A stretch of 38,696 bases of DNA from a virus, in IMG/VR virus record IMGVR_UViG_3300045988_140085, positions 1 to 38,696 of that record, one strand, 5' to 3'. The notes beneath the pieces are model-generated. The model was not told the origin of the DNA, made no database searches, and was given only the letters and a program-made list of their open reading frames with translations. The position numbers and the translations under genes were made by a program. Below are positions 16,721 to 38,696 of the stretch, piece by piece (position 1 is the stretch's first letter; every line of letters begins with the position of its first letter).

Positions 16721-19054
16721 TTATTTTTTCTTTTTCTTTTCGGGGTTTCTTATCCATGCAAGCGAGGACCCATAAATACCAAAGATACGTTTTTTCCCTG
16801 TCGGTCGGTATACTTGGGTCGCACGTATTGCATCCGCTACTTTACGACCTATGGCCGTGTTCATTTCTTTGCGTTCGTACCCGTAGAACTCTCGTGCTAC
16901 CTCCTGCGTACAAATGTACTCCCGAGGTTTGCCAGTCCATACCTCTTTTTTATCCTCCCAATAATCTTTATGTTCAAACGTTGACATCTCCTCCCAATTA
17001 TCGGGGACGGGCATGTTAAGATAATCGAGCAATGAACCGAGGTCTAAGTCTTCCGCACGATGCACGTTACGCACCTCTCGCGCTTGCTCCTCCGCCTCCT
17101 GCGACAATACGGGCAACACACCTTGTAAATAGTAGTGTACGGCTTCGGCCCAATATTTATCTACGAGATCGAGGAACGAATTGTCGTGCACGCTTATCGT
17201 AATACGCTCCGGATTGCACATCAAACCCCACCAACGCCGACCGTCCTCCGACGGGTCGTCGAGAAAAACGACGTCGTTCGACGAAGCGATAAATACGCAT
17301 TGACGCTTGTACGTCTTTGTGTATTTAAGGTATGCCGAGCGATAGCGATCTTCACCTTTGGTTACGAACGCTTTGCGGCTGTTGGTGGATCGGTTTTGCA
17401 CACCGTTCAACTCGGGTATCTCCATGATCCACACGCCGCGCAACTGCTCGTACGCCTCCTTACTGCCGTTAAACGTGTAGAACGTATCGCTACCCCATAA
17501 CTTCGCCATACGTCGAATGAAACGCGACTTACCAAGACCTTCCTCCGAGACCAACACAGGTATGTAGTCCATCTTTGATGCGGGCATGAACACACGTCGT
17601 ACCGCTCCAACGAAAAACTTTATGCCTACCTCGCGTGAGTACAACGTATCAGCCACACCGAAACAGTCGATAAATATCGTCTCCAAACGTTTCTCGCCGT
17701 CCCATTTAAGCGAGTTAAGATAGTCACGCACGGGGTGAAAAGCGTTTTTATGCTCAACGATGTTCAAAGCATCGTTCAATACGATACGGGAGTCGAACTC
17801 GTATTTTTCCTCGAAATGCAAACGTAGATAACTCTCGTCCACATCCTCCATGTCGATGTACTCCTGCAAGTTCTTACAATCCTCGTTATCCGTACGCACC
17901 TGTGAGGTACGCCAGTAAGGTAGTCTTTTCAACACGGGCATCTCGGAGAACTGATCGTACCCAAATACGTCCCGCACGTCGGGATCGTAGGTGAGGATCA
18001 ATTCCGCGTTTTTCAACGTTTTCGTAAGATTGCCCTTATTGTCTACCTCCAAACGTTCGTTAAGGATCGCTTTTGCTTCCTCGTCAGACATGCTGTCCAA
18101 CGTAAGCCTGTGTGCTTTCCCGCTGTCCGGCTTAATGCCGAGAGAGTCGCAAAGCGCGGCCATCGCCGCTTCACCCTGTTTACCCTCTCCGAACTTGTAT
18201 AGACGCACGGCATCATACGCATTGTGGCACCTACCTAAATAGGGGTCGGACGAGTGATTGGAGTACAAATATTTGTCCTCGTAGATCACACCTCCACCGT
18301 ATGTCGTTGCACCTGCTAACGTGTATCGTCCGTTGTTAGTAGGCAACCAAATATCCGATAGGTATGTATCGATCGCTTCGCGTATCGTATACTTCGAACA
18401 GAATCCACCGATAATGCCGCCCTTAAATTTGGGGTCCTGCACACGCACCTTTGTGGGCACCTCTATACCGGATAGGTCACGCCAGTTTTTAAGTTGTCCC
18501 AGTATCTCGTCTGCGTCCAACGGTTCACCGTCCTCGTGCGCATCGAAGTAGTACTTTGCGTCTTTCGGTACGGACGGCAGGAACATGATACGATTAAAGT
18601 CGAACGTCGACGTGTCGAGGGGCAATTTGAACTGATCGTGTAGTATGCGCATTATTGCGGCATACTCGTCCGCAACTACAATACGAGACAACGGCGCGAC
18701 TACACGATAACGTGGTTCTGTCGGTGTCGAACTGTGGGTCGAATGTATGATATACTGACGACCGTACAGCCATGTGTGCAAACTTTTCAACGTCTCTACG
18801 TCAGCCTCGTCTATGTCTATAACGAGTAACTGACGATACGCTACCTTACGTTTAGTTACAAGCCCTCCTATGAAAAAACCTACGTCCTTTACTTCGACAC
18901 GCTGGGCTTTCGTCATGTCTGAGTACTGCCGCATAGTCTCTTGCGTATATACGACGTCCTTTAGACGTTTGACGATCTCGGGCCACTCCCATTGATATTG
19001 CTGTTGTACGCTTGTGGCCGTACGTTTTGCTCCTAACGCTATGTCATAAACCAT
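16721..19054 (-). CDS. Primase-helicase: N-terminal AEP (prim-pol-like) domain fused to a VirE/VapE-family P-loop helicase
   Basis: LLVIDIDE plus IIHSTHSS...RYRVV (AEP-like motifs). The VirE block is YLNSLKWDGEKRL...VLVSEEGLGKSRF (Walker A)...VFIASSND...RRWW. Confidence 0.85.
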   Translation of the reverse strand: MVYDIALGAKRTATSVQQQYQWEWPEIVKRLKDVVYTQETMRQYSDMTKAQRVEVKDVGFFIGGLVTKRKVAYRQLLVIDIDEADVETLKSLHTWLYGRQYIIHSTHSSTPTEPRYRVVAPLSRIVVADEYAAIMRILHDQFKLPLDTSTFDFNRIMFLPSVPKDAKYYFDAHEDGEPLDADEILGQLKNWRDLSGIEVPTKVRVQDPKFKGGIIGGFCSKYTIREAIDTYLSDIWLPTNNGRYTLAGATTYGGGVIYEDKYLYSNHSSDPYLGRCHNAYDAVRLYKFGEGKQGEAAMAALCDSLGIKPDSGKAHRLTLDSMSDEEAKAILNERLEVDNKGNLTKTLKNAELILTYDPDVRDVFGYDQFSEMPVLKRLPYWRTSQVRTDNEDCKNLQEYIDMEDVDESYLRLHFEEKYEFDSRIVLNDALNIVEHKNAFHPVRDYLNSLKWDGEKRLETIFIDCFGVADTLYSREVGIKFFVGAVRRVFMPASKMDYIPVLVSEEGLGKSRFIRRMAKLWGSDTFYTFNGSKEAYEQLRGVWIMEIPELNGVQNRSTNSRKAFVTKGEDRYRSAYLKYTKTYKRQCVFIASSNDVVFLDDPSEDGRRWWGLMCNPERITISVHDNSFLDLVDKYWAEAVHYYLQGVLPVLSQEAEEQAREVRNVHRAEDLDLGSLLDYLNMPVPDNWEEMSTFEHKDYWEDKKEVWTGKPREYICTQEVAREFYGYERKEMNTAIGRKVADAIRATQVYRPTGKKRIFGIYGSSLAWIRNPEKKKKK

Positions 19055-19069
19055 AGTTGTTTTTTTTTT

Positions 19070-19495
19070 TTACTTCCACACTACTACCATACTCGGAAAC
19101 GGTGCGCTATTTTGCGCGTTGCCGAATTTCAATCTACCTTTTATAAAACGTATTTCTTTCGCTTTATGGTAAATGAAATCGTGAAAATACCGCGTATCGG
19201 TCCGTGCCGGAATAAGGGCTACTACAATCGTATTAGGCTTTTGCGATTCTGTGTAACACTTCTTTACCCATTCTTTTATCGCTTTCCCGTACGGAGGGTT
19301 GCAAAACACGGTCTCCCCCTCCCAGTTTTGTTTCAAACCGTTTTCTACGACCGTGTAGAACTTCTCGCACTTAGCGTTTTCCGCAGTAGCGCACGGGTCC
19401 AACGTAAAACTGAACTCTACGTTCAGTTTATCGAAAAAGTCACGTGGGGTCGCCCATAAATCGGTAGCACTTGAAAACATTACATTAGTATTCAT
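19070..19495 (-). CDS. Phage-type DNA N6-adenine methyltransferase (Dam family)
   Basis: WATPRDFFDKLNVEFSFTLDPCA ... VFCNPPYGK ... ALIPARTDTRYF ... FIKGRLKF gives the full motif order of the phage Dam family. Confidence 0.85.
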   Translation of the reverse strand: MNTNVMFSSATDLWATPRDFFDKLNVEFSFTLDPCATAENAKCEKFYTVVENGLKQNWEGETVFCNPPYGKAIKEWVKKCYTESQKPNTIVVALIPARTDTRYFHDFIYHKAKEIRFIKGRLKFGNAQNSAPFPSMVVVWK

Positions 19496-19503
19496 TCTTT
19501 TTT

Positions 19504-19818
19504 TTACTCTAACACCTCGAACCCCTCTTTACGCACCTTACGAATAGCGTTTTTCAAATTCAACGCTTGAACGTACATGCACCCGTCGCGTACTTGCACA
19601 CGGGTTCTGGTACTGACGCCAATCTTTTTCGTCTTCTCATTATAATGATAAGAGTATTGCGCATCTATCTCGGCTACTTGCACGACCTTTGACTTTGAGT
19701 TATACTCAAACAACGTAAGACCGGGATGGCGTATTACCGTCCCCAAAAATCGGTGCTCCTGCTTTTGAGGCTTGGGCGCGACAACCGCGTCCTTTGTTTT
19801 AAGTTTATCGAGTTCCAT
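19504..19818 (-). CDS. Hypothetical protein
   Basis: 104 aa ORF, tightly packed in the operon. Confidence 0.55.
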   Translation of the reverse strand: MELDKLKTKDAVVAPKPQKQEHRFLGTVIRHPGLTLFEYNSKSKVVQVAEIDAQYSYHYNEKTKKIGVSTRTRVQVRDGCMYVQALNLKNAIRKVRKEGFEVLE

Positions 19819-19819
19819 A

Positions 19820-20014
19820 TTACTTTATATTTCCACGTTGATCTAACTCTCGAAAAATGCGTCTCTCTCCCCAATCGCCGCTAAGTAATTCACATATATG
19901 CACGTCTTTACCGTAACATAATTTGATTAACGAACAGTTATAACACGCATTGTCCCCGTCTATAAAACAAAGGGCGTGAGTGATTCCGCATATGGTTACT
20001 TTTACGTCTTTCAT
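19820..20014 (-). CDS. Small Cys-rich protein, paralog B (CxxC-x5-C-x7-C)
   Basis: 64 aa ORF. Shares MKDV.(I/V)TI.G..H.L and CxxCSL...C.......IC with the adjacent 59-aa ORF. Confidence 0.6.
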   Translation of the reverse strand: MKDVKVTICGITHALCFIDGDNACYNCSLIKLCYGKDVHICELLSGDWGERRIFRELDQRGNIK

Positions 20015-20190
20015 ACACGTTCGAAGTAAAACGATTTGTCGAGGTCTGCCCCGCTCAATTTACAGATCGGATCGGTCCAATCGTTACACACCAAACTCAA
20101 CGAACACAGATCGCAGTCGTGCGCACCGTTTGATTCAGTATATACGAGTTTATGGACCTCGCCGTCAATGGTTATAGTTACGTCTTTCAT
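20011..20190 (-). CDS. Small Cys-rich protein, paralog A, 59 aa (MKDVTITIDGEVHKLVYTESNGAHDCDLCSLSLVCNDWTDPICKLSGADLDKSFYFERV), not in the ORF track
   Basis: Hand translation. Its stop overlaps the ATG of paralog B (ATGA). It fills the gap after the polymerase gene. Confidence 0.6.
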   Translation of the reverse strand: MKDVTITIDGEVHKLVYTESNGAHDCDLCSLSLVCNDWTDPICKLSGADLDKSFYFERV

Positions 20191-20199
20191 ATCGGTTAG

Positions 20200-22251: not shown

Positions 22252-22661
22252 CGTTTTGTAATCTCCTCTATTACTTTGTAAATAAATGCGGATCGCTGTG
22301 CGTACCTGAGTTCGTAATATACCGCATTGAGCAACATACAAGCGTTCTTTACACTCAGTTGTTCCAAAGCGTTCAATTTTGCTTTATCTACGTTATATTG
22401 ACGTTGCGTTTCTTTCCACACCATTACGTTAACAGGGTTGTTCCATGTGGCTACGACGGCCCCGCGGCTATGTATAACCGCGTTGTTCTCGAACTCATGC
22501 GCTACTATTGCACCCGGTACCGCGTAAGGATTGACTTTAGCGTTGTAAAGCACATGCGTACCTTTGGTACTATCGGTCAGATCATCGAGATTATCCAAAC
22601 GTAAGTAATGATACCCGTATTCGTTCCGATACATGTAGCATAAATAACCCATCTCTTTCAT
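22248..22661 (-). CDS. Hypothetical protein
   Basis: ORF. Start moved to MKEMGY, which carries the conserved leader ttaaaaattaaacgtATG. Confidence 0.55.
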   Translation of the reverse strand: MKEMGYLCYMYRNEYGYHYLRLDNLDDLTDSTKGTHVLYNAKVNPYAVPGAIVAHEFENNAVIHSRGAVVATWNNPVNVMVWKETQRQYNVDKAKLNALEQLSVKNACMLLNAVYYELRYAQRSAFIYKVIEEITKR

Positions 22662-22684
22662 ACGTTTAATTTTTAAGAAATTTG

Positions 22685-22734
22685 CACGTTGTGCCGTCCC
22701 GCCCGGCGAGGCTTTCGCCTCTCTATGCAACGTG
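22685..22734 (-). promoter_or_regulatory. Structured intergenic element: outer stem cacgttg/caacgtg enclosing gaggc-gaaa-gcctc (GNRA-type tetraloop hairpin)
   Basis: Read directly in the 128-nt gap between the SSB gene and the next gene. Terminator or processing-site candidate. Confidence 0.4.
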
Positions 22735-22789
22735 TCCCTTTTTAAAAAGGTAAGTCGCCGTTATCGTTTTCGATAGGTGCGCCCGGTTT

Positions 22790-23389
22790 TCAGGCGTATT
22801 CTTCGAGGTCGATATAATCGTCGACGTTGTTCGACGATCCGGCGATACGTTCACCGTCGGCATACTTCACCACAGCGTGAACATTGCAACCGATGCCCTG
22901 CGCGGTGGAGTTGTAATACGTCCAGAACGATACGTTTGCAATGATGTAATCGCCATCCTCCAGACGTTCGTCGGAAAGGTTTTCCACCGACACGTTCGGC
23001 ATGGGCACACCGTTTATAATCATACGGCGTTGCATGTCCGATACCAACGGGCGGAAATTCTTGGACGCTACTTTGAGCATCATATACCCGCGAAACGCTT
23101 CTTTGCCGTCGTTCATATCGGCGAACTCGTCACCGTCAACCCAGCAGTTATTTTTAGGGTTGATCGCTTTCGCGTTCTTGCCTTTGAATCCTTTCGACTG
23201 AAGTTCTGCGAACGCTTCGGCGAAACGGTCGTTGATCTGTTTGACTTTGTCCTCGTCCGTCTTAGGCACGAGGATAATTGCGTTGTACTTGGGGTCGCCC
23301 TCCACACCCTTTACTGCCTTTTTCTCGAAAAGACCTGCGGGGTACACGACACGGCACACGGGTGCGCCCTTAATTTGAAATCTGTCCAT
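22790..23389 (-). CDS. Single-stranded DNA-binding protein, T7 gp2.5-like (DUF2815-type)
   Basis: 199 aa. The N-terminal pattern (YPAGLFEKKAVKGVEGDPKYNAIILVPK) and the acidic aromatic C-terminal tail (NNVDDYIDLEEYA) are typical of phage SSBs. Confidence 0.65.
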   Translation of the reverse strand: MDRFQIKGAPVCRVVYPAGLFEKKAVKGVEGDPKYNAIILVPKTDEDKVKQINDRFAEAFAELQSKGFKGKNAKAINPKNNCWVDGDEFADMNDGKEAFRGYMMLKVASKNFRPLVSDMQRRMIINGVPMPNVSVENLSDERLEDGDYIIANVSFWTYYNSTAQGIGCNVHAVVKYADGERIAGSSNNVDDYIDLEEYA

Positions 23390-23421
23390 ACGTTTAAATT
23401 GTTTAATTGGTTTGAAATGTG

Positions 23422-23853
23422 TTATGCGTTTTTAAGCGCGTTAATGTAGTACTCTTTGAGACGTTTTTGTCCCTCGTCGTCATCCTCCGAGATGAAAATA
23501 TGGGCGAGAGTAAGCACGTTTTTGTCCGTAACGTTCAGCGTTACGCCGTTGCTCACCTCAAACTGCAACATTATGCCTTGCACGAAGACCTGTTCGTGCA
23601 AATCCATGCAGTCTTTTACATAGTCGTGCAGGTCTTTGAGTGCGTCGGCCTCGTCTGCCTCCCCGATCAAGGCCTCCCACAGACCTTTAGACTGTTTGAT
23701 CGTTTCGATCAGTCCGATGACGTGGCAGGCCGTCGATACGTCGGGATTCGGGAACTTTTCGACCGTGTTCCCGATCTTAACCTCCAAAGCGCCGTTTTCG
23801 TACTCAACGAATTTTGCGCTCATAAGAGCGTTCAAATCATAATAGCTTTTCAT
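23422..23853 (-). CDS. Hypothetical protein
   Basis: 143 aa ORF with the conserved leader aattaaacgtATG. Confidence 0.55.
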   Translation of the reverse strand: MKSYYDLNALMSAKFVEYENGALEVKIGNTVEKFPNPDVSTACHVIGLIETIKQSKGLWEALIGEADEADALKDLHDYVKDCMDLHEQVFVQGIMLQFEVSNGVTLNVTDKNVLTLAHIFISEDDDEGQKRLKEYYINALKNA

Positions 23854-23861
23854 ACGTTTAA

Positions 23862-24599
23862 TTAAATTAAAGGATTTATAACGTTAGCGAGTTTACATAA
23901 CTCGACAATACGTTCGGAATGGTTTAAGTAGTAATACGAACTTTTATGCAACAACGTAACCGGGAGTTCGTACCGACGGTCCGGCGTGTAGCCCGCACGA
24001 GTAAAAAGACCAATAAGATACTCTACGTTGCAATGGTTTTGGTAAGACTTACGTCGGTGAAACTCGTCGCGCGGCACCTCGTCCGTGAAAAATAAGTCCA
24101 TCATGTCGCCCGTTGATAGCGTGTTATTACACTCTATATAAATATGATCGAAACGTTTGTCTTTCAACGCACGAATGATGTATTTTTCGTCCACAATTTC
24201 GTTAAAATCGGTAAGCCAAAGGATCGTTTGCGGTTCAGCGTATTCCGACCGTGCACACCTTTGTATCTCGAAGCCCACGCACGGGACGTCATGCCGCAAG
24301 GGGATGATCTTAACGGTGTATTGGAACTCATTGGAACACAGCACTTTAACGTCACCCGGGGTAAGGCTGGAGAATGCCAAGAAAGGCCATTTATGGGCTA
24401 ATCTGTCGGCTGTCTCGGGGGTGCAGTAGGTAGGTAAGCCCCCCACCTTATCGAGGCATTTTGTGTGGTCCGTGTGGTTGTGAGTGAGTAATACATGCTC
24501 CCCTTTGGGCACCTCGGGCCACCCTACGTCAATAATCAGAAAGTCGTCGATTGATGCGGTGTTACCGCTACTACCGGAGTGTACTATATTTACGTTCAT
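23862..24599 (-). CDS. Metallo-beta-lactamase-fold hydrolase (possible nuclease)
   Basis: HxHxDH motif LLTHNHTDHTK near the N-terminus; later His/Asp ligands (RHDVPCVGF, LTDFNE). Confidence 0.75.
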   Translation of the reverse strand: MNVNIVHSGSSGNTASIDDFLIIDVGWPEVPKGEHVLLTHNHTDHTKCLDKVGGLPTYCTPETADRLAHKWPFLAFSSLTPGDVKVLCSNEFQYTVKIIPLRHDVPCVGFEIQRCARSEYAEPQTILWLTDFNEIVDEKYIIRALKDKRFDHIYIECNNTLSTGDMMDLFFTDEVPRDEFHRRKSYQNHCNVEYLIGLFTRAGYTPDRRYELPVTLLHKSSYYYLNHSERIVELCKLANVINPLI

Positions 24600-24602
24600 A
24601 CC

Positions 24603-25079
24603 TTATACGTTTAACTTTGCACCGCTTGCGTTTTCGATCGCTTTGAGGACTTGATCCAATTTGTTGGCGTCACGTTCGGACAAAGCCGTGAACAGGTTTG
24701 TCAGTACCTTACGACGCAAGGCGTGGAATGTAGGATTTGCGAACGCATTAACGAGGTCACGACCGCCCCGTTTCTCGTGCACAACACGGAACTCACGCAC
24801 GTTAAATTCGCTCATATCGTCCCCGTTAGGGAACTCGACACAAACGGTAAACCAGCCTTTGAACCCCGGCAGGCATTCGTCCGGCGACTCGACCCCGGAC
24901 GAAAATACATTGCGTATTAGATCATTGATACCCTCGACGCTACCGCACTCCATGATGGTACGGGGTATATCAGCACACCCGAAACCGTACCCTATATATT
25001 TTAATGGTGTGTAGTACTTGCGCACGCTCGTTTGGATATAATTTGCGTGCACCGTTACCGTTAAGACGATGTTATTCAT
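24603..25079 (-). CDS. Hypothetical protein
   Basis: 158 aa ORF. Confidence 0.55.
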   Translation of the reverse strand: MNNIVLTVTVHANYIQTSVRKYYTPLKYIGYGFGCADIPRTIMECGSVEGINDLIRNVFSSGVESPDECLPGFKGWFTVCVEFPNGDDMSEFNVREFRVVHEKRGGRDLVNAFANPTFHALRRKVLTNLFTALSERDANKLDQVLKAIENASGAKLNV

Positions 25080-25106
25080 GGCTTAATTATGTTAAATTAT
25101 TAGGGC

Positions 25107-25132
25107 CCGGCGGTCCGATCAAAGACCGCCGG
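25107..25132 (-). terminator. Hairpin; sense strand reads ccggcggtc-tttgatcg-gaccgccgg (9-bp stem, 8-nt loop)
   Basis: Read directly in the gap between 25145 and 25079. The loop is identical to that of hairpin 3751..3774, but the stem sequence differs. Confidence 0.6.
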
Positions 25133-25144
25133 ACAAGATGCGCA

Positions 25145-25702
25145 CTACTGGATGCCGTGCGTCTCGGCTATCGCACGCAGGCGGGCCGTTTCTTGCGCTT
25201 TTTGGTAGAGTGCATCCAACTGATCCGCTACGACCGGATAGTGATTGAACGCGGGTCCGCGCTTGCACTCCGTGACAAAACAGCAATAGTTGCCATACCT
25301 CAGACAATACCCACCGCTCTCCACCGTAATCGTCGCACCTTTATCGACCAATTCGGTCCATTGTTTTATGATGTTAATAAACGTTCGCGGTACTTTTTTC
25401 CATCGTGCCGCCTCGCCGATTAATCCGCCCGCACTCGACATCTTTTGTACAAGCCAGTCGATAGTAGGCTCTTTGGGGTATTGGTACGTCTTACTCCCGT
25501 TGCGCGTTTCGATCTTTATACCGGACCGCGCTACGCGCGGGAAATTGGTGTACCAATCATTATACTCCTGCGAAACTTTCGCAGGAAATAGACATACATC
25601 CACACCGTACTCGTCGGATAGCTTTTTAAGACGTTCGTACAAAGCGCGTGATTCCTCGGACGTATCCGGGATTATCGGGTTCCCTTTCTTCGCTACCACC
25701 AT
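25145..25702 (-). CDS. Hypothetical protein
   Basis: ORF. Start moved to MVVAKKG, because the longer N-terminal extension overlaps a better micro-ORF. Confidence 0.5.
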   Translation of the reverse strand: MVVAKKGNPIIPDTSEESRALYERLKKLSDEYGVDVCLFPAKVSQEYNDWYTNFPRVARSGIKIETRNGSKTYQYPKEPTIDWLVQKMSSAGGLIGEAARWKKVPRTFINIIKQWTELVDKGATITVESGGYCLRYGNYCCFVTECKRGPAFNHYPVVADQLDALYQKAQETARLRAIAETHGIQ

Positions 25703-25800
25703 GATATAAACGATGCTATAATAATAACTACTACGATTACATATAGCAACCCTACGCACATAAAGAATAGAATTGCAAAATCTTTTTGGTCTTCCTCCAT
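25693..25800 (-). CDS. Micro-ORF, 35 aa membrane peptide (MEEDQKDFAILFFMCVGLLYVIVVVIIIASFISWW), not in the ORF track
   Basis: TAAGGTATG start context right after the upstream stop. Its TGGTGGTAG end overlaps the downstream ATG. Fills a 100-nt gap. Confidence 0.5.
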   Translation of the reverse strand: MEEDQKDFAILFFMCVGLLYVIVVVIIIASFISWW

Positions 25801-25803
25801 ACC

Positions 25804-26325
25804 TTAATCTTTTGTTACCATCTCCCACGAATCAGTGAGCGAATTGTGTTTGCCGTACTTGGTTGCGGATAGGAACATGGCACCGGGGGTACGTTTTTCG
25901 AACATCTTTTGTGCGCTGTACACGTCCGGTGCTTCTACGCTGGCGTGGTACCCGTTGCAATCCGCAGGATCGGCCTTTGTATAGATTATATCATAGCCGA
26001 ATTTGTCGTACAGTCGCCCAAACTCTTTGTAATGATCCTCTACGATCTGCCGCGCGGCCTCTTTGAGAATGCACACGCGCGTTGAGGGTGTCGAATGCTC
26101 CCCAACTGCATCTAACAAACGGTGGTCCGTGGGGCAGGGCAGTCGGCCCCATTGCGAAATAGACGTCACCCGTGTGTTAAATGCTTCGTCATTCTCCCAC
26201 GCTCGTACCAACTCTTTAGTCGTCCATCGCTCCAATACGATCCGCTTGTGCAAGCCGTTCACGAACTGTGCGAGATACTCGCGGTGCGTGCATTTGTGAT
26301 TAAGATAGTCCTGACGTGTGTACAT
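25804..26325 (-). CDS. Hypothetical protein
   Basis: 173 aa ORF with leader cttaaacactcaaaactATG. Confidence 0.55.
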   Translation of the reverse strand: MYTRQDYLNHKCTHREYLAQFVNGLHKRIVLERWTTKELVRAWENDEAFNTRVTSISQWGRLPCPTDHRLLDAVGEHSTPSTRVCILKEAARQIVEDHYKEFGRLYDKFGYDIIYTKADPADCNGYHASVEAPDVYSAQKMFEKRTPGAMFLSATKYGKHNSLTDSWEMVTKD

Positions 26326-26424
26326 AGTTTTGAGTGTTTAAGTTTGCGGGCAATATCGCCCGGTTCGTGCGTTACGCGGTTTCGCTCCGCCGTGTTGCGT
26401 CTTACGCAAATAACGCTACCCCCT

Positions 26425-27618
26425 TTACTCTCCGACGGTGAAACGTATTACGTTCTGCACGTCGTCGAGGCCCTGCACGCTCTCGGCGTTGTCGATGATG
26501 ATCGGTATCTTGTCGATGGTACCCGTCATCACTCGCGCCGTCTCCAATATCCGCACGCATATCTCTACGCGCTTGGCCCGGTTAACGCTTTTGAGCGGCA
26601 CACCTTTGTAGGTGAGGGTGCAGGTGGACGAGGTGCGCCCGGTTGTCTTGGCCGTCGTCTCGGTTATGATCTGCACGTCGTCCGGCAGGGCGGGACGGAC
26701 TGCCGCCGCATCAGCGGCCCGGATTTGTTCCTCCAGCGCGGCCATCTGCTCGTCGATGTCCTGCACACGACGGCGTGCGCCGGACGCCCGCGATATGATC
26801 GCTTCGGCCTCATTGATGGCCGCCGTCTCAGCATTGTAGGCTTTGAGCCGCTCGGTTATCCTCTCCACCTCCGCCCGCATACCTTGATAGGCTTCGTTGG
26901 CGGCGTCCCGCTCGCGGCGCACGGCGTCGATCTCGGCGGCTGTGTACTGCTTGCCGCACGTCGGGCAGACTGTCGGCAACGTCCCGCCGATCCGGTTAAG
27001 CGTCGCAACGTGCTCACCTGCTCGCGCCATGTAGTCCGTTTCGGCCTCGGTCAGCGGCTCGACGGTCCGGGTAGGCACGGCCACGGTGGTTAGCGCGTAT
27101 TGCTCGGCCGCGCGGCGTTCTTTGCGCAGGGCATCACGCTCGCGCCGGAGGTTTGTCGCTTCGTCGTTCTCAACGAGGGACGCACGCGCTAACAGGCGGC
27201 GTAACTGCTCGGCGGTAAGCGCCGGGTCGGTCAAAAGGTTTGCGTCAGCACACGCGACTACGAGGTCAATAGGTATGCCGAAACGCTGGGCGAGGATGTC
27301 GGTAAACTCGGCTTGCGTAACCACCTCATCGCACAAATATAATTGTGTCGATCCCTTGGGGGTGAGTACACGCCGTATAGTCGTGCCGTCGGAGGGCCAG
27401 CCCGTAATCGTTACACAGGTGTTGACACTTGGGCTTGGGTCCATACCTGTCTGCGGGTCTATGCGCCGCGGTTGGAACCCGTTGAGCGTTCTACCCGTGA
27501 GGGCGAAGACCCATGCGTTAACCTGCGTTGTTTTGCCCGCCCCGTTAGGCATCGTGCGGGATGTGAATGGCGCGTTAAAGACATCGAACGCGCCAAATAG
27601 TACCATTGATAGTTTCAT
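26425..27618 (-). CDS. Mini Rad50/SbcC/SMC-like ATPase with a central CxxC zinc-hook-like motif
   Basis: Walker A MPNGAGKTT at the N-terminus. A long Arg/Glu/Ala coiled region has CPTC (26956..26967) at its midpoint. C-terminal IPIIIDNAES is Walker-B-like. Confidence 0.7.
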   Translation of the reverse strand: MKLSMVLFGAFDVFNAPFTSRTMPNGAGKTTQVNAWVFALTGRTLNGFQPRRIDPQTGMDPSPSVNTCVTITGWPSDGTTIRRVLTPKGSTQLYLCDEVVTQAEFTDILAQRFGIPIDLVVACADANLLTDPALTAEQLRRLLARASLVENDEATNLRRERDALRKERRAAEQYALTTVAVPTRTVEPLTEAETDYMARAGEHVATLNRIGGTLPTVCPTCGKQYTAAEIDAVRRERDAANEAYQGMRAEVERITERLKAYNAETAAINEAEAIISRASGARRRVQDIDEQMAALEEQIRAADAAAVRPALPDDVQIITETTAKTTGRTSSTCTLTYKGVPLKSVNRAKRVEICVRILETARVMTGTIDKIPIIIDNAESVQGLDDVQNVIRFTVGE

Positions 27619-27647
27619 ACGTTTAAGTGTTTAAGAGTTTTAAAAGA

Positions 27648-27678
27648 GTCCCCGGCCCGGCACCTCCAAGCCGGGGAC
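27648..27678 (-). terminator. Rho-independent terminator; sense strand reads gtccccggc-(13 nt)-gccggggac followed by tcttttaaaa
   Basis: 9-bp GC stem plus a U-rich tail, 60 nt after the stop of 27740..28345. The conserved leader motif follows immediately. Confidence 0.7.
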
Positions 27679-27739
27679 GTAGTAAGGTATGCACCGCCTG
27701 CGAAAGCGAATGGTTTTTGATGCACACCTATTTACCTCT

Positions 27740-28345
27740 CTACTGCGCGTCCGGGTCGATACCGGCGGCGATCAGCATTTGCCGCAGACGCTCGGCTTCG
27801 CTCTGCATCTTGACGGCCTTGCTCTCGACCTCGGCCAGTCGTGCCGATACGCTCGCGCGGCCCGCGCTCTTAGGCAGTTCGAACGACATTACGACCTCTT
27901 TTGCGGCCTCGACGTCGGCGTCGAACTGTTCCGCTTCCTCTTTGCGGGCCTGCAACTCGGCTTCGAGGCGGGCGATCTCGGCGACGATCTTCTCGCGGTT
28001 CTTCTCCTCGGCCTGCACGAAAGCGGCGGCACGTTTGGCGGCGATCTCGGCGGCACAGTCGGCGGGGATTTCGATGTCCTCGACCACACCACGCACGAGT
28101 TTTTCGGTCCCATCTTCCTGCTTGGTGAGCGTTGCGCGGAAGAAATTCCCGGTTCGCTTCTCGAAGTTGAGCGCGGCGGCACTCAATGCGGGCAGTTTGG
28201 CGCGGAGAATCGCGGTTGCTTTCTGCACCTCGGGCGTTGCGTTTTCGGCGGCCTCTTTTTCAGCGTGTTCTGCGGGGATCGGCTCGGTCTGCGGCTTCAT
28301 CTCCTGCAATTCGTTCGGGTTCTGTACTTTCGTTTCGTTTTTCAT
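27740..28345 (-). CDS. Hypothetical coiled-coil protein (Ala/Glu/Lys-rich)
   Basis: 201 aa ORF. It is the only frame with a sensible start and leader (aaaaacatttacaggtATG); the antisense ORFs are GC artefacts. Confidence 0.6.
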   Translation of the reverse strand: MKNETKVQNPNELQEMKPQTEPIPAEHAEKEAAENATPEVQKATAILRAKLPALSAAALNFEKRTGNFFRATLTKQEDGTEKLVRGVVEDIEIPADCAAEIAAKRAAAFVQAEEKNREKIVAEIARLEAELQARKEEAEQFDADVEAAKEVVMSFELPKSAGRASVSARLAEVESKAVKMQSEAERLRQMLIAAGIDPDAQ

Positions 28346-28396
28346 ACCTGTAAATGTTTTTAAGTGATTAATAATTAGACGTCTTTACGTCGTTGT

Positions 28397-28444
28397 GGCG
28401 GGCCGGGGTGTTACTCCCCGCGGGACGGTTTGCCGTGACCCGCC
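28397..28444 (-). other. GC-rich multi-hairpin element (outer ggcggg/cccgcc; inner cgggg-tgttact-ccccg and acgg-tttg-ccgt)
   Basis: Read directly in the 104-nt gap between 28450 and 28345. Confidence 0.4.
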
Positions 28445-28449
28445 GTACC

Positions 28450-28884
28450 TTATTTGTTGTACTCCCGGTCGAATGCACGGAGTAAATAGTAGTCCTTTTT
28501 GTAGTACTTGCTTACTATTAGCACCCTTTGCGACGTATTGAGGCCTATGGCCATACCTGCTACACCTTGAACGTACGTTACTAACGGCAGGTCTTCGTGT
28601 ATCGCTGTTTTGTACGCTTCGTCGTACTCCTTGAACGTTTTGAATCTTACCTCTTTTGTCGAGGCGCTACGCACCACGATTGCAAACTCCCCCTCGGCTG
28701 TTGTGACGATCTTTGCGCGTCGTATCGGCTCGTACTCCTTTTTGCACCTCTCGCAGAACTCCGTTACGGTCATCTGTTCGTCGTATAACCGCGAATAGTC
28801 CATTACGTTGTACAGTCGGGCCGTCGTGTCATACGTTACACGCACTAACGTGCTACGCTTTTTGTTGATATAATACGTTGTCAT
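28450..28884 (-). CDS. Hypothetical early protein
   Basis: 144 aa ORF. Confidence 0.55.
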   Translation of the reverse strand: MTTYYINKKRSTLVRVTYDTTARLYNVMDYSRLYDEQMTVTEFCERCKKEYEPIRRAKIVTTAEGEFAIVVRSASTKEVRFKTFKEYDEAYKTAIHEDLPLVTYVQGVAGMAIGLNTSQRVLIVSKYYKKDYYLLRAFDREYNK

Positions 28885-28890
28885 ACCTTG

Positions 28891-29235
28891 TTAGTCTAAG
28901 ATAAAACAAACTACGTTATACATGTGCTTTTCGTCCGGGTCCCGCACCGCTATCACGGCGTCAGCCACATGCCCGAGGTAGGCAAGCCTACCTAAAAGTA
29001 TCTCGGATTGATCGCTTTGATCTACGATGCCCACCACCGTGCATTTGGTCTTTTCGTCCATTGCCTGCCGTATTCGTGGCGTGCAAGTGAGCACTACGCC
29101 GTCGCCGTCCTCCGGCGTTATCTCCGTCTCGACCCCCGCCGTACCTTTGAGCAGGTCCCCGGCGCTCAACAGTGCGTAATTCTCTGGTTCGATGTTGAAC
29201 TCTTTGGTGATCTTCAAAAACTCGATTGCTTTCAT
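28891..29235 (-). CDS. Hypothetical early protein
   Basis: 114 aa ORF with leader cacttaaacacttaaacgtATG. Confidence 0.55.
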   Translation of the reverse strand: MKAIEFLKITKEFNIEPENYALLSAGDLLKGTAGVETEITPEDGDGVVLTCTPRIRQAMDEKTKCTVVGIVDQSDQSEILLGRLAYLGHVADAVIAVRDPDEKHMYNVVCFILD

Positions 29236-29274
29236 ACGTTTAAGTGTTTAAGTGTTAGAGCCGGGCCACGGTTT

Positions 29275-29652
29275 TCATTGCATACAACGCTCGATTAACG
29301 CCCACGCCCGTATATGCGCCCTTACTTGCACGTCCATCCACGTTTCGCGTGCGTTGGGGGCCTTGCGTCCATAGTCGGTACGTCTCAACTCGGACGGCGT
29401 GCAAAGCGTTTCAGCGATTTCTCCGTCGTAGATCATTGCACAACCGCCATAACAATACTGTTCCCAGCCGTTCGCACCGTTAAGTACAGTTTTTTCGGTT
29501 AGCGGGGGCACCGAGTCTGACCCCTCCCGATCCCGTACTATCTCCTCGTACCTGTCTAACAGACCCTTGGCGATCTCTTTCACGCCCTTGTCCCATGCTG
29601 ACCGGGGTTTAATGCCCTCCAGTCGTACCCGTATCTTCTGCATCTCTTTCAT
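29275..29652 (-). CDS. Hypothetical early protein (first gene of the leftward operon)
   Basis: 125 aa ORF with leader cttaaactatttaaaaacttaaacacttacaactATG. Confidence 0.55.
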   Translation of the reverse strand: MKEMQKIRVRLEGIKPRSAWDKGVKEIAKGLLDRYEEIVRDREGSDSVPPLTEKTVLNGANGWEQYCYGGCAMIYDGEIAETLCTPSELRRTDYGRKAPNARETWMDVQVRAHIRAWALIERCMQ

Positions 29653-29725
29653 AGTTGTAAGTGTTTAAGTTTTTAAATAGTTTAAGTATATCGGGGTGTC
29701 GTTATCTTCTCCCCCTTTCGTTACA

Positions 29726-29756
29726 CAAATATACAACGAAAAAACGGAATCACAAA
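29726..29756 (-). promoter_or_regulatory. Leftward (early) promoter, Bacteroidota type: TTTG-N19-TATATTTG
   Basis: Sense strand reads ttatTTTGtgattccgttttttcgttgTATATTTGtg. Perfect match to -33 TTTG / -7 TAnnTTTG with 19-nt spacing, about 70 nt upstream of ATG 29652. Confidence 0.65.
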
Positions 29757-29956
29757 ATAAAATTACGGAAAAATGTGATAAAATCGTGAAATAAAACGGT
29801 TTTGTGTACTATACACCCCTTGCAGACCTTTTTTGTTTACTTTCCTGCCCTTGCATACCTTTTTTGTTTTGGGTCCGGGCCGAAACGGTTTACTTTACTT
29901 TACAGGGTGTTAAGTAAAAAGACGAAAATCGTTAAGTAAATGACAAATGATTTCGC

Positions 29957-30782
29957 TGTAAATCAGTAAGTTACAAAGGTGCTTACTTAACCCCCTTGAG
30001 TATCAACGAGTTACACGGGAAAATGAACTCCCTGTAAATCAAGTAATTACAAGGGTCATTTTGTAACTACTTGTCGCACAGTCGGTTAGACGGGAAGATT
30101 AACCCGCTAACAATCAAGCAGTTACAAGGGTCTAATTTCGCGGAATCAAATTCGAAAAATGTGAGTCCCTGTAAATCAATACGTTACAACCTAAAAATTC
30201 CACGAAATCGAACACCTCCGGGAAGATGCAAAAACCTAACTTTTTCACGACTTTTCGACCCCCCAAGGGCCATTTTCCACGAATAAGTTAGGAATTACAT
30301 TAAAAAATTACCCCTTGAAATTTATAAACGTTTGATAATCATAGGTTTGCAGAGATTTTATTTTCCGGCAAATGGCATGAAATCGCTGTAAAGGTCTGTA
30401 AATCAATACGTTAATCTTCCGCTGTAACGCCCTGTAAATCAAGGCGTTACAAAAGGCCTCGTAACGTATTGATACTCAGCGGGTTAATCTTCCGCGGCAA
30501 CGCCCTGAGTATCAAGTAGTTGAAAAATGGCCCTTGTAACTTGTTGAAAGTCAGCGAGTTCATTTTCCCGGGTAATTCACTGAGTATTAGCAACTTAGAG
30601 AGACCGATTATCAGGCAGTTACAGCCCTTGATAATCAGGCAGTTACGAAAATTGACCGACTAAATTGGTAGACCAATTTTTACTCAGAAGCTAATGCGTT
30701 GATAACCAAGTAGTTAATAGAATTAGAAAAAACTATAAGCTATGCAAATAGTTCTAAACTGCTTGATTTATAGTGAGTTACG
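29957..30782. repeat. Array of at least 15 copies of a 19-bp iteron TG(T/A)RWATCARNNNGTTAC(A), in both orientations
   Basis: Forward copies start at 29957, 29997, 30033, 30108, 30170, 30397, 30433, 30506, 30581, 30605, 30629, 30700 and 30764. Reverse copies lie at 30062..30080, 30460..30478 and 30535..30553. Confidence 0.8.
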
Positions 30783-30886
30783 GCGATACGGCGGCCCGTC
30801 GGCCCGGCGATACGGCGCGAAAGGCTGGCCGCCGAGACGCCGCCCCGCTGTTTCAATAATTGAACTTGCTCCCCGTGGAACACTCT

Positions 30887-30946
30887 CGACGTATCGACGT
30901 ATCGACGTATCGACGTATCGACGTATCGACGTATCGACGTATCGAC
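30887..30946. repeat. Perfect 8-bp tandem repeat cgacgtat x 7.5
   Basis: Read directly. Flanked by GC-rich blocks carrying related cgatacgN octamers in the opposite orientation. Confidence 0.95.
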
Positions 30947-31078
30947 TGAATGGGAATGCGTATGAGATAAATACGATACGGCGATACGACGGCCCGACGG
31001 GCCGGCGCGAAATCGAATCGCCGGGGCAAACAGGCGGCGGGGGGTCGGCCCGCTGACCGGGCTCCCCGACGTATCGTC

Positions 31079-31262
31079 AAAAAAATTTTTTAAAAGTACC
31101 ACCGGAATAGTAGGTCTAAAAATTTTTAAAAGTACAATTAATAGGGTAGGCCTAAAAATTTTTTAAATGGTAAAATTGGAGTAGCGTATACGTTTAATTT
31201 TTAAATGGTAAAATTGGAGTAGCGTATACGTTTAATTTTAAAACGGCAAATTTGGAGTAGCA
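31079..31262. repeat. AT-rich tandem repeats, about 5 units of 36-38 bp; the two central units are an exact 42-nt duplicate (31160..31201 and 31198..31239, period 38)
   Basis: Read directly; units begin near 31079, 31117, 31154, 31196 and 31234. Confidence 0.85.
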
Positions 31263-31406
31263 CACACGTTACGACGGCCCGACGAGACGATGCCCCAAAT
31301 TCCAACGCTGAAACTGCGTCCCGACCCAAATAAAATAGGTATGTAGACGTAAATCGGTCGATTTCGATTCTGTGGAAAAGAATTTCACGAAATTCATGGA
31401 CGAAAG

Positions 31407-31437
31407 TTTGAAATGTCGGAAAATTTTATTATCTTTG
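31407..31437 (+). promoter_or_regulatory. Rightward (late) promoter, Bacteroidota type: TTTG-N19-TATCTTTG
   Basis: cgaaagTTTGaaatgtcggaaaattttatTATCTTTGaat is a perfect consensus match with 19-nt spacing, 22 nt upstream of ATG 31460. Confidence 0.65.
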
Positions 31438-31459: not shown

Positions 31460-31678
31460 ATGAAAAAAGTTCAAAAACGCTTACAGGACCTTACGACCAT
31501 GATCCTCAACCATGAGGACCCTACGTCGGACGAGTGCGCCGCGTATATCGCTGAACTCAAACTGTTGCGTGAGTTGATCGCCACATGGAAAGCGTTCAAC
31601 GGGTACGAGGGGGACCTCGACCCGGACGCCGACCCCGGAGACAGGCCCGAGCGGAAATCGACGCAGGTGTGGGAGTAG
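31460..31678 (+). CDS. Hypothetical small protein upstream of the large terminase (a small terminase role is possible but unsupported)
   Basis: ORF. Start moved to MKKVQK because ATG 31439 would lie at or upstream of the predicted transcription start. Confidence 0.5.
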   Translation: MKKVQKRLQDLTTMILNHEDPTSDECAAYIAELKLLRELIATWKAFNGYEGDLDPDADPGDRPERKSTQVWE

Positions 31679-31705: not shown

Positions 31706-33136
31706 ATGGGACTTACAACGAAAATACGGCTCACGAAAAAACAGAACGAAGCGATACGGCTTTTGGACGACAGACACAAAGACCTCATACTCTTGCTGGG
31801 GGGCTCGGGATCGGGGAAATCTTTTGTCGAAGTCTACAAGGTCATACGCGACGCACTGCGGTACAAAGCCCCGTGTCTTATCGCCCGTGACAAACTGATC
31901 GACTTGACCACAGGTGTGATCGACCAAATCGTTCCGGTGATCCTCCAGTTGATCGCAGAGGAGAACGGGCAGGAGAGATGGGACAAATGGACCATCGACG
32001 GGTTGAAGTTCGCCGTTTGGTCGGACAAACGAACCAAACTTACGTTCGCAACAGGCGGTTATGTAAGGTTCGCAGGTCTGTCGAAACGTGACATATCGGA
32101 GAGCGGTTCGGATAAAATCCTCTCGCCGTCGTGGTTGCACATCGCAATCGAGGAGGTGTCGGAGGTCGATTGGCCGATCATTGAGTTACTTATCACACGT
32201 TTGCGTTTTCAGACCGAAGGTGTGACAAATAAACTCATAATGACGGAGAACCCGCCGTCGATGTATCACTTCTCGTACAAACGTTTTTTGGAGAACCAAC
32301 GCGAGGACGGATCGGAGTTGCCGGAGGAGGAACGCGCACGACAAGCGTACCTTTTCATGCAACCAAAAGACAACGAGGAGAATCTTTCGGAGAACTATAT
32401 ACGTAACCTTTCGCAACTGTCCGGCGCGAATCGGGAACGTTTCTATTTGGGACAGTTCCAAGACGCAGAGCAGGGAGAGATATTCAAACGTATAAGTTGG
32501 ACGAAAGTCCTGCCGCGCAAGTGCGAGTGGGAGCGGTTGTGCATATACACCGACCCGACCCCGCTTACAGGTACGGACCACAGCATTTGGGCGGACTATA
32601 AGGCAAGCGTGCTTTGCGGTCTGTTTGACGGTAACGCATACGTGCTCGACATACGCATCGTAAAAGGCTCTACGTTGCAAATGCTTAACAACATCAAGCA
32701 GTTGTGGGACATGTCGCCAAACCAATCCATAACAGAGGTATGGATGGAGAAAAAGCAGATACCGTCGGACTTCGATCAGGTCATGCGTAACTTTGCGCTT
32801 ACAACCGGGTGGATGTGCCCCGTAAGGTATGACACGCGCAACTTCGGTGACAAGACCGCCGCAATCGAGACGTTCCTCGAACCGCTGTTCGAGGACGAGC
32901 ATATATTTTTTAACAACGCATTCCGCGATACGGAGCGTGGCCGACAGTTGCAACATCAGATACTTAAGTTCTCGCGTAAGCAGAACAAGAACAGGCACGA
33001 CGATATACCGGACGCAATCATGCGTTGCGTAACGAAATTAATGGGTAAAAAGGGACGTAAGCAACGTATGAAAGACGCACCGTTGGTTATGTTCGCAAGA
33101 CCCGGTTACATTCACGATATAGTAAACAATGGATAA
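31706..33136 (+). CDS. terL: Terminase large subunit
   Basis: Walker A LLLGGSGSGKSF, Walker B-like WLHIAIEEVSE, and a C-terminal nuclease region with ...CIYTDPT... and NRHDDIPDA acidic motifs. Confidence 0.85.
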   Translation: MGLTTKIRLTKKQNEAIRLLDDRHKDLILLLGGSGSGKSFVEVYKVIRDALRYKAPCLIARDKLIDLTTGVIDQIVPVILQLIAEENGQERWDKWTIDGLKFAVWSDKRTKLTFATGGYVRFAGLSKRDISESGSDKILSPSWLHIAIEEVSEVDWPIIELLITRLRFQTEGVTNKLIMTENPPSMYHFSYKRFLENQREDGSELPEEERARQAYLFMQPKDNEENLSENYIRNLSQLSGANRERFYLGQFQDAEQGEIFKRISWTKVLPRKCEWERLCIYTDPTPLTGTDHSIWADYKASVLCGLFDGNAYVLDIRIVKGSTLQMLNNIKQLWDMSPNQSITEVWMEKKQIPSDFDQVMRNFALTTGWMCPVRYDTRNFGDKTAAIETFLEPLFEDEHIFFNNAFRDTERGRQLQHQILKFSRKQNKNRHDDIPDAIMRCVTKLMGKKGRKQRMKDAPLVMFARPGYIHDIVNNG

Positions 33137-38107: not shown

Positions 38108-38696
38108 TGAGGGTATCAGAAAAGAAACAGGTTCTTACGACCAGCGCGGTCAATCTGAACGGGGTTCAGATTCCGACTGACTGTATCGACTGGAGTGTCT
38201 ACGACAAGAACCCCGTACTTTTGTACAATCGTGCAAACGAGAGTCACAAAGGTGTGGTAGTAGGTAAGGTTCTGAACCGCGAACGTGTAGGGGATGCGAT
38301 TGTTGCAAACCTCGCTTTCATGGAACGGAACGAGGACGCGGATATCGCGTTCGAAAAGTACGATCAAGGCGTCCTGCCTCACGTTTCTGTGGGTGGATAT
38401 GCACGCGGCGAGGAAAACTCGGAGGGCGTATTTATCTGCGACAAGTACATGATTCGTGAGGTATCGCTCGTAGCGTTCCCCGCAAACATCGAATGTGCTG
38501 TGTTGGACGACAACAACGTACTCGCATCAGAACAGCCGATCGTGGAAGGTATGCGAACGGGCAAAACCGAAATCCGTTATGTAACGTTGAGTTGGGACGG
38601 TGATATGGGAACCATCGTGAACGCATCCGAGGAAACGCAGGCCGCAGAGACCAACGCATCCGAGGAAACGCAGGCCGCAGAGACCAACGCATCCGA
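38107..38696 (+). CDS. HK97-family prohead (capsid maturation) protease, S78 type. The ORF is not terminated in the window and continues in frame at base 76 into 113..1429. Not in the ORF track.
   Basis: Hand translation: MRVSEKKQVLT...NESHKGVVVGKV (His), HVSVGGYARG (Ser), IREVSLVAFPANIE (family hallmark). Its ATG overlaps the upstream stop (TAATG). Confidence 0.8.
   Translation, partial: MRVSEKKQVLTTSAVNLNGVQIPTDCIDWSVYDKNPVLLYNRANESHKGVVVGKVLNRERVGDAIVANLAFMERNEDADIAFEKYDQGVLPHVSVGGYARGEENSEGVFICDKYMIREVSLVAFPANIECAVLDDNNVLASEQPIVEGMRTGKTEIRYVTLSWDGDMGTIVNASEETQAAETNASEETQAAETNAS
38620..38696 (+). repeat. In-frame 33-bp tandem repeat (aacgcatccgaggaaacgcaggccgcagagacc, encodes NASEETQAAET); 2 full copies plus a diverged partial copy continuing at 76..85
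   Basis: Exact tandem copies at 38620..38652 and 38653..38685; the same text is seen at 1..66. Confidence 0.9.

Follow-up and report, generated by a model that had tools for sequence, protein, structure and literature searches.

The virus record IMGVR_UViG_3300045988_140085 (positions 1 to 38,696, the whole of which is here called the window) is a complete, circularly assembled phage genome of ~38.6 kb from the human gut, and the main non-coding stretch of this genome, which also holds the minimum of its cumulative GC skew, carries an error-free tandem array of the octamer CGACGTAT. This perfect array is a fast-evolving non-coding tandem repeat (a variable-number tandem repeat or microsatellite), and the 300-bp block around it is a single perfect 8-bp array amid decayed 8-bp arrays. 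On sequence evidence, we tentatively propose that the array belongs to a family of repeats with an 8-bp period, of which it is the member now expanded, and that these repeats together are a candidate for the iteron part of the phage replication origin, a possibility that we take seriously without holding it probable. Origin iterons are the best-supported reading because opposed sets of short units, a conserved anchor sequence and an A+T-rich block occur in the main non-coding stretch of a phage that encodes an initiator of the Rep1 type. We thus describe the feature as a putative control region of the iteron type, in which the iterons take the form of a hypervariable octamer repeat; the interpretation given in the initial annotation is partly supported.

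Tandem Repeats Finder delimits the array at 30886-30946 on the plus strand, with a period of 8, 7.6 copies of CGACGTAT, 100% matches and a score of 122. Across the window the octamer occurs 14 times against 3.2 expected, a count reached by 0 of 100 shuffles, and eight of the 14 occurrences fall within 30887-31074, among them a solo forward copy at 31067-31074. The opposite-orientation heptamer CGATACG is found at 30784, 30808, 30974 and 30982. The flanks of the array reach 64% G+C in 100-bp windows, as against 27-45% across the remaining non-coding region, and have in common a 39-nt direct repeat (30784-30822 and 30974-31012, 79% identical, family D7), and GGCCCGACG is found again at 31272-31289 (families D2 and D5). 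The initial annotation, which was made from the letters of the window, had described the error-free array, the inverted copies, the solo copy, flanks that are the most GC-rich non-coding DNA, their shared direct repeat and the partial recurrence of a palindrome near 31273, and all of these are confirmed here. An inverted element that it assigned to the two flanks (30836-30854 and 31027-31047) is ~80% complementary by eye, with one indel, but is absent from the 25 longest inverted pairs. Its statement that the array has no degenerate copies does not hold: with the perfect array excluded, the lag-8 base autocorrelation is 0.59 in the left flank (z 4.5) and 0.48 in the right flank (z 4.1), and flank CpGs recur at lags of 3, 5, 8, 11, 13 and 16, which is the skeleton of CGNCGNNN, with CpG lag-8 z-scores of 5.2 (left) and 4.0 (right), so that both flanks are decayed arrays of 8-bp period. 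The elements of the region are as follows.

29940..30790, no strand: ~22-bp repeat CTGTAAATCAAGnnGTTACAA, at least 12 copies in both orientations (families D3, D4, D6 and D10; inverted pairs I1-I10)
30781..30820, plus strand: left degenerate 8-bp-period block, CGGCGATA CGGCGGCC CGTCGGCC CGGCGATA CGGCGCGA
30827..30854, minus strand: G+C-rich inverted segment, GGCCGCCG AGACGCCG ..., read from the sequence and including an imperfect inverted copy of the conserved anchor
30850..30881, no strand: two palindromes with a common GTTC/GAAC half-site, GTTTCAATAATTGAAC and TCCCCGTGGAAC, read from the sequence
30886..30946, plus strand: perfect (CGACGTAT)x7.6 array, hypervariable among relatives, written GTATCGAC in register for comparison with them
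30947..30973, no strand: 27-bp spacer of ~36% G+C from the forward array to the inverted units
30974..30989, minus strand: two opposite-orientation units, CGATACGG CGATACGA, matching the reverse-complement unit CGATACGT at 7 of 8 bases
30979..31026, plus strand: right degenerate 8-bp-period block, CGGCGATA CGACGGCC CGACGGGC CGGCGCGA ...
31028..31058, plus strand: conserved 31-bp anchor, AAACAGGCGGCGGGGGGTCGGCCCGCTGACC (alignment A3), unique in the window
31067..31091, plus strand: the solo forward unit, then an A7 T6 tract (31079-31091)
31082..31273, plus strand: A+T-rich repeats of 27-28% G+C, 36-bp x2 and 38-bp x2.7 (families D9 and D12), a candidate DNA-unwinding region
31267..31295, plus strand: third G+C-rich 8-bp-period block, CGTTACGA CGGCCCGA CGAGACGA ... 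(families D2 and D5)

Relatives were found by searching with the terminase large subunit (TerL), which gave 36 metagenome loci. The 125-aa first early protein belongs to a set of 173 protein clusters, in which all of the 120 matches listed are at least 77% identical, and the phage family is abundant in human-gut assemblies. No relatives were found in GTDB genomes, which consequently offer no host or prophage information, and no cultured relative was found either, as the phage collection contained no DNA match. In this search for cultured relatives, TerL protein returned one substantial match, an unannotated faecal contig with 40% identity that has genes and no arrays upstream of its TerL, and six further records matched only in part (24-31%).

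The initial annotation had suggested looking for the octamer in related genomes, and (CGACGTAT)n indeed stands at the same place in every relative of 95-98% TerL identity whose contig reaches that position. Complete arrays in these close relatives hold 3.0, 3.9, 4.75, 7.0, 7.6, 7.75 and 12.25 copies, and ten contig ends fall inside the octamer array, several leaving exactly 55 bp of repeat. A k141 contig carries 10+3 copies together with (CGTAACGC) arrays, alternating four times with the palindrome CGTTCCACGTGGAGCAATG, and scaffolds L052 and L054 have flanks that are 99.8-100% identical and N-gaps in the arrays of both. This variation of copy number among close relatives bears out the proposal of a recent expansion. 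There is no need to invoke the strong selection that had been offered to explain a flawless array, because slippage by itself maintains purity; either replication slippage or unequal exchange is able to produce both the purity and the changing length. A coding role for the array was rejected, as the flanking frames are joined differently in each relative and are not conserved; that all six frames are open across the array follows from a unit without a stop codon. A clustered regularly interspaced short palindromic repeat (CRISPR) array was likewise rejected, as the units abut without spacers between them. An unrelated 55-kb contig (IMGVR_UViG_2523533507_000001, L004) has 3.5 octamer copies at 416-439 in a different context, probably by chance. 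A literature search for the octamer returned only primer sequences, and searches on octamer repeats in phages returned nothing useful.

Arrays of period 8 or period 16, built from differing units, occupy the same place in the clades with 95-98%, 68%, 64-65% and 62% TerL identity. Every relative has such repeats there, as forward and inverted sets beside the 31-bp anchor and an A+T-rich repeat block. Among the close relatives, a second array with units CGTATCGA, CGTAACGC or CGTACAGA occupies a fixed neighbouring position. The 68% clade is without CGACGTAT; immediately ahead of the same anchor it carries arrays of period 8 or period 16, namely (GCAAAGAC) in at least 8 copies, (GCGCAGCGAGGCAAAG)x5.4 and (GCAATGAATCAAAGGG)x4.2, and the 62% relative carries (TCCGACGC)x7.5 plus a 16-mer x3.6. 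The most extended layout is that of L140 (64% TerL identity), in which (AAACGCAG)x18.6 is followed by a 30-bp spacer, a reverse-complement array x36.5, a diverged anchor and an A-run; six of the eight positions are invariant in all 53 of its units, and the four main unit variants are present in both arrays. L139 (65%) has two forward units and one inverted. Across clades the units contain a core of the form G-W-A-W-C-G (GTATCG, GTAACG, GWAACG or GAAACG), the reverse complement of which (CGTTAC/GTTAC) appears in the 22-bp repeats. This architecture persists in clades that otherwise differ in most of their non-coding DNA, which argues against a purely neutral repeat. Further afield, the viral contigs L151, L154, L157 and L159 (38-88 kb) encode distant homologues (39-48%) of the 125-aa early protein, and period-9 or period-10 arrays, (GAGACCCAG)x9.8, (GTGTCATTAT)x12.8 and (GTGTCATCAT)x3.7, lie upstream of genes for such homologues; the wider phage group may generally have control regions with short tandem arrays.

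The individual elements of the region can be followed among the relatives. The left block, which shares an inverted pair with the adjoining segment (I24, 30781-30796 and 30827-30842, 81%), is in relatives a perfect (CGGCGGCC)x3-4 array, and (CGGCCCGG)x3.2-4.2 is found in L010, L017, L022, L023, L025, L045 and L052-54. The second palindrome is degenerate in the window (TCCCCGTGGAAC), where relatives carry TTCCACGTGGAAC; the GTTC/GAAC palindromes are conserved in the 68% TerL clade, and in some relatives the second is interleaved with the arrays up to four times (four copies in L053). Spacers between the opposed sets are roughly 20-45 bp in relatives and share GGATGGG...GATAAAT, with the 30-bp spacer of L140 as the equivalent there, and they are followed by one to three inverted units (CGATACGT CGATACGT CGATACGA in L003 and L008). 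Within the right block lies a GGCG...CGCC inverted repeat, the loop of which varies among relatives (alignment A3).

No other non-coding sequence is as well conserved across three clades as the anchor, which might be a cleavage or a binding site. The 11 aligned sequences agree fully in its core (AAACAGGCGGC, then GGGG) and in its terminal GACC, the core of the anchor AAACAGGCGGCRGGGG...GCTGACC is invariant in the three aligned clades, and L140 and L139 have a diverged copy. A scan of viral contigs gave 54 matches, with the full anchor only in relatives already found, and no ungapped second copy with up to 3 mismatches was found in the window. The A-run after the anchor measures 7 bases in the window (31079-31085) and 15, 19, 21 and 34 in L021, L052, L054 and L019; it may be another hypervariable simple repeat or, alternatively, an artefact of assembly. 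Beyond it, every full 38-bp unit of the five A+T-rich 36-38-bp repeats carries CGTATACG, and the third G+C-rich block has a counterpart, (ACGGCCCG)x2-2.6, in L008 and L015. The ~22-bp repeats on the other side of the array are spaced 36, 39 and 75 bp apart with a 75-bp super-period, and relatives carry 75-bp super-repeats x3.8-4. The GTTAC conserved in them reads on the other strand as GTAAC, the core of the second array type, and they are a second candidate family of iterons or operators. The density of GTAAC/GTTAC is 7.8 per kb in the region and 2.4 per kb elsewhere, that of GTATCG/CGATAC is 6.7 and 1.2 per kb, and the core hexamers are 4-5 times denser in the spacer between the promoters than elsewhere.

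The phage encodes a protein that could bind such repeats.

16721..19054, minus strand: gene for a 777-aa primase-helicase of the Rep/PriRep type of staphylococcal pathogenicity islands (SaPIs) (Pfam VapE-like, 2.2e-59; PDB 7pds_A, 2.5e-57 over residues 343-688)

PDB entry 7pds is SaPI1 Rep1 bound to DNA (PMC9371898). Rep and PriRep are self-loading initiator-helicases, the C-terminal winged helix of which recognises iterons of 5-6 bp; SaPI origins have 6-12 such iterons, half on each side of an A+T-rich segment and at least two per side in opposite directions, and the substrate used for cryo-electron microscopy of Rep1 held two iterons in 19 bp (PMC9371898). A search of PDB sequences with the C-terminal domain of the 777-aa protein was uninformative. 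An AlphaFold2 model of this domain, built from a 43-sequence alignment, has a predicted local distance difference test (pLDDT) score of 80.8, rising above 85 over model residues 31-130, and in a Foldseek search of this model 7pds chains ranked best (E 9e-6, probability 1.0, template-modelling score 0.62), followed by winged-helix transcription factors. The C terminus, at about residues 689-777, is thus predicted to be a winged helix that matches that of Rep1, with its recognition helix at about residues 733-746, and the modelled fold makes the 777-aa protein a candidate repeat binder through this domain. Over 58 homologues (60-97% identity), identity to the window protein is 0.48-0.59 in the C-terminal domain and mostly 0.8-0.96 in the ATPase core, and this lower C-terminal conservation would fit a specificity domain. 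The "origin factor" named in the initial annotation as a possible ligand of the array gains indirect support from this Rep1-type initiator-helicase and its predicted winged helix.

Leftward genes at 13722-29652 form the replication module, with products that include an SbcC-like ATPase, a metallo-beta-lactamase-fold protein, an Enc34-type single-strand-binding protein, DNA polymerase A, a Dam-type methylase, the 777-aa VapE-like primase-helicase, a weak VRR-NUC match and an SNF2 helicase. Rightward genes start at 31460 with a 72-aa open reading frame (ORF, 31460-31678), followed by TerL and later by a Mu-type portal and virion genes. The array lies within the 1.7 kb spacer between the divergent early and late promoters; neither canonical promoter transcribes this spacer, and both are at least 480 bp from the arrays.

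29726..29733, minus strand: leftward early promoter, -7 box TATATTTG, of the Bacteroidota type TTTG-N19-TAnnTTTG, facing away from the array
31408..31437, plus strand: rightward late promoter, TTTG-N19-TATCTTTG, ahead of the 72-aa ORF and TerL and facing away from the array
31706..33136, plus strand: TerL (PHROG 979, 38 and 2), which starts 760 bp downstream of the array

The phage host is probably a Bacteroidota species rather than a staphylococcus.

If the repeats are origin iterons, the winged helix would recognise, in each 8-bp period, one short core G-W-A-W-C-G (such as GTATCG or GTAACG), and the DNA targets of the C-terminal domain would be (CGACGTAT)n or (GTAACGCC)n. Hexamers would then assemble on the opposed sets and open nearby DNA, either at the spacer or at the A+T-rich block (31082-31273), and a few units might suffice, so that copy number could drift from 2 to >36. 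In favour of this scheme are the opposed layouts of the window, with 7.6 forward units, the 27-bp spacer and two inverted units, and of L140 and L139; a block of 27% G+C is located 130 bp farther along the window. The resemblance to the origins of SaPI1 (Rep1) and SaPI5 (PriRep5) lies in the homologous initiator with its matching predicted C-terminal fold, in short repeats arranged as two opposed sets with A+T-rich DNA nearby, and in a repeat number that varies between elements (PMC9371898).

Several observations weigh against this assignment. SaPI iterons are 5-6 bp long, number 6-12 and lie immediately downstream of rep, whereas the phage units are 8 bp long, occur in 2 to >36 copies, head to tail, often error-free and hypervariable, and are 11.8 kb from the rep-type gene, the end of which is overlapped by the next gene. 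The spacer between the opposed sets is short and only moderately A+T-rich, and the sets are unequal (7.6 and 2), with only 1-1.5 inverted units in several relatives. The 22-bp repeats offer a second iteron family in the same region, and in the units of the 68% clade (GCAAAGAC and GCAAAGGC) the shared core is not evident. The GC-skew minimum falls where gene orientation switches and is therefore confounded, parts of the N-terminal domain of the 777-aa protein are as poorly conserved as its C-terminal domain, and a location 760 bp upstream of TerL suits a packaging site equally well.

A further parallel is offered by satellite phage P4, whose alpha primase-helicase (777 aa) binds the type I iterons of ori and crr, octamers of the form TGTTCACC, through a C-terminal winged helix. 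Compared by description, the two systems have in common an octamer repeat in direct and inverted copies, a candidate iteron in the phage, and a fused primase-helicase with a C-terminal DNA-binding domain (predicted in the phage); the P4 iterons are few and are not known to form contiguous head-to-tail arrays. A literature search on the P4 iteron returned nothing useful. In an extension of the origin reading that we consider quite improbable, the iteron arrays would act as a hypermutable control knob: through slippage between ~2 and >36 units, and through opposed arrays that are able to pair, the phage population would continually vary the strength with which the self-loading helicase (or terminase) is recruited. 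The arrays would then be a cis-acting contingency locus for tuning replication or packaging, as opposed to on/off switching of a gene.

That the arrays are neutral slippage repeats, selfish or neutral expansions in a tolerant non-coding region that share their period by descent from one ancestral 8-bp repeat, is in our judgement unlikely. In its favour, copy number moves freely between 2 and >36 under no apparent constraint, the second array has a unit that drifts from one close relative to another (CGTATCGA, CGTAACGC, CGTACAGA), the flanks are partly duplicates of each other (family D7) and could have inherited their period, and the genome has several other perfect tandem repeats. Such a repeat would hardly be expected, however, to keep its periodicity and its forward and inverted layout down to 62% TerL identity amid little other non-coding similarity, to leave six of eight positions invariant across the 53 units of two opposed arrays, as in L140, or to have a core hexamer common to the clades and the 22-bp repeats; moreover, a compact ~38.6 kb genome retains 300-700 bp of this material in every member examined. 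Freely varying copy number had been put forward in the initial annotation as a mark of a neutral microsatellite, and that part is seen here, but the architecture is kept across clades with otherwise dissimilar non-coding DNA. The position of the block, 630-930 bp upstream of TerL and behind the late promoter, is the basis for reading it as a packaging (pac) site, a role that the initial annotation had suggested testing. Such a site would consist of the repeats and the anchor, bound cooperatively by terminase through a small subunit or adaptor before the first headful cut. Pfam Terminase_6N and Terminase_3 (precomputed matches on the TerL genes of relatives L052-L054) and the Mu-type portal of the window belong to families that mostly go with headful packaging, a circular assembly fits a permuted genome, and P1 pac and lambda cosB likewise use repeated sites in both orientations. 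The conservation of the anchor in three clades is also what a site read by a conserved enzyme would lead one to expect. We nevertheless regard a pac site as decidedly unlikely: the terminase small subunit suggested as binder was not found, as neither the 72-aa ORF before TerL, which matches no family and has no DNA-binding motif, nor the ORFs after TerL match such a family, and unit sequences differ between clades while TerL stays 62-68% identical. The contig ends in the region all coincide with tandem repeats, and in many cases 55-66 bp of repeat remain, as the k-mer limits of assemblers predict; these ends hence provide no evidence of physical termini and were rejected as such evidence.

Short contiguous repeats in both orientations are also the hallmark of operator-like sites for small proteins that coat DNA, here in an 8-bp register, which might serve an early/late switch or DNA organisation. 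The block lies between two divergent promoters, and its unit resembles the MetJ met-box AGACGTCT, matching it at 6 of 8 bases. In the parH/OF site of TP228, ParG (a ribbon-helix-helix protein) binds as one dimer per 4-bp box, and the regular 4-bp spacers give an effective 8-bp period; its 8 + 12 degenerate boxes, direct and inverted, are coated cooperatively, and rearrangement and loss of boxes are tolerated (PMC3130281). The parS/operator sites of pSM19035, bound by omega, are contiguous non-palindromic 7-bp heptads in direct or inverted orientation, of which at least four contiguous units are needed for function (PMC9499535). We consider a site of this kind clearly improbable, since no ribbon-helix-helix, ParA or other small DNA-binding protein was detected among the ~40 ORFs scanned (PHROGs, Pfam and NCBIfam), some small ORFs being outside that scan. 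No omega-like protein was found in the phage either. Unlike the phage arrays, parH is A+T-rich, has an ACTC core, needs both ParG and ParF and is not a perfect, hypervariable array, and the pSM19035 arrays have a period of 7 bp and overlap promoters; the phage arrays are at least 480 bp from either promoter. The 125-aa first early protein was rejected as the binder: it belongs to no family, its sulfiredoxin- and ParB-like matches are insignificant (E 0.6), and it models as all-alpha with low confidence (AlphaFold2 pLDDT 68) and without a fold match. A structured non-coding RNA or single-strand hairpin element, in which the array would fold against its inverted copies, seems to us barely credible. 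The G+C-rich block in A+T-rich surroundings, the ability of the forward array to pair with inverted units (up to a ~149-bp stem in L140) and folding z-scores of -2.7 (DNA) and -2.3 (minus-strand RNA) are in its favour, but these scores are modest, with -1.3 for plus-strand RNA, and the candidate stems show conservation of their sequence and lose their pairing in relatives (L028, for instance, has GGCCGG/CTGACC in place of GGTCGG/CTGACC). Furthermore, Rfam has no match at the gathering threshold, with all sub-threshold matches (E up to 1) outside the block, and there is no well-placed Bacteroidota-type promoter, the sole inward -7-box match, at 30342, being 440 bp upstream and without a correctly spaced TTTG. 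Contingency loci resemble the array in being perfect short-unit repeats whose copy number changes among very close relatives, but the array lies outside any conserved ORF and is not placed between promoter elements, the promoters face outward, and no on/off switching of genes is apparent; a phase-variation locus was therefore rejected.

Other observations concern the genome around the control region. The 77 bases at each end of the window (1-77 and 38620-38696) are identical and comprise 2.3 copies of a 33-bp repeat within the ORF that starts at 38108, which encodes NASEETQAAET repeats; because these ends lie inside a coding repeat, the break arose in the assembly of a circular or permuted genome, and the assembled number of 33-bp copies may differ from the true one. 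No tRNA or tmRNA was found in the window. The genes for the SbcC/Rad50-like ATPase and the metallo-beta-lactamase-fold protein are at 26425-27618 and 23862-24599 (minus strand), a combination worth noting because the long opposed arrays of relatives could form hairpins. Two adjacent paralogous Cys-rich ORFs (19820-20014 and 20011-20190, minus strand, 64 and 59 aa), both starting MKDV.VTI.G, are located between the Dam methylase region and the DNA polymerase gene. The motif ACTTAAAC, with 1.7 copies expected, is present in 7 copies, all of them on the minus strand (sites at 29238-29253, 27621-27628, 26336-26343, 29663-29687 and 23922-23929), and at least four of its sites are just upstream of early-gene start codons, as in AACACTTAAACACTTAAACGTATG; a possible function is that of a leader or translation-initiation signal, the phage having no Shine-Dalgarno sites. 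Among relatives, the related TAAGTGTT repeat (29658-29687) has between 2.4 and 4.1 copies.

An 18-bp near-perfect coding repeat x4.4 lies at 1868-1946, inside the ORF at 1466-2059, and many public contigs of this phage are ~28 kb long. Their length matches the separation between the 18-bp repeat and the octamer array, so that each of the two is probably a point at which assemblies break. The octamer arrays explain the shared assembly break point in this phage family, and they are usable as a strain-level marker. Were the origin reading correct, it would provide a mapped replication origin for an abundant uncultured family of human-gut phages, together with a pair formed by a Rep1-like winged helix and its 8-bp unit. 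It would also mean that self-loading initiator-helicases of the SaPI type serve full-size phages of another bacterial phylum, and that there is an origin whose iterons behave as a hypervariable tandem repeat.

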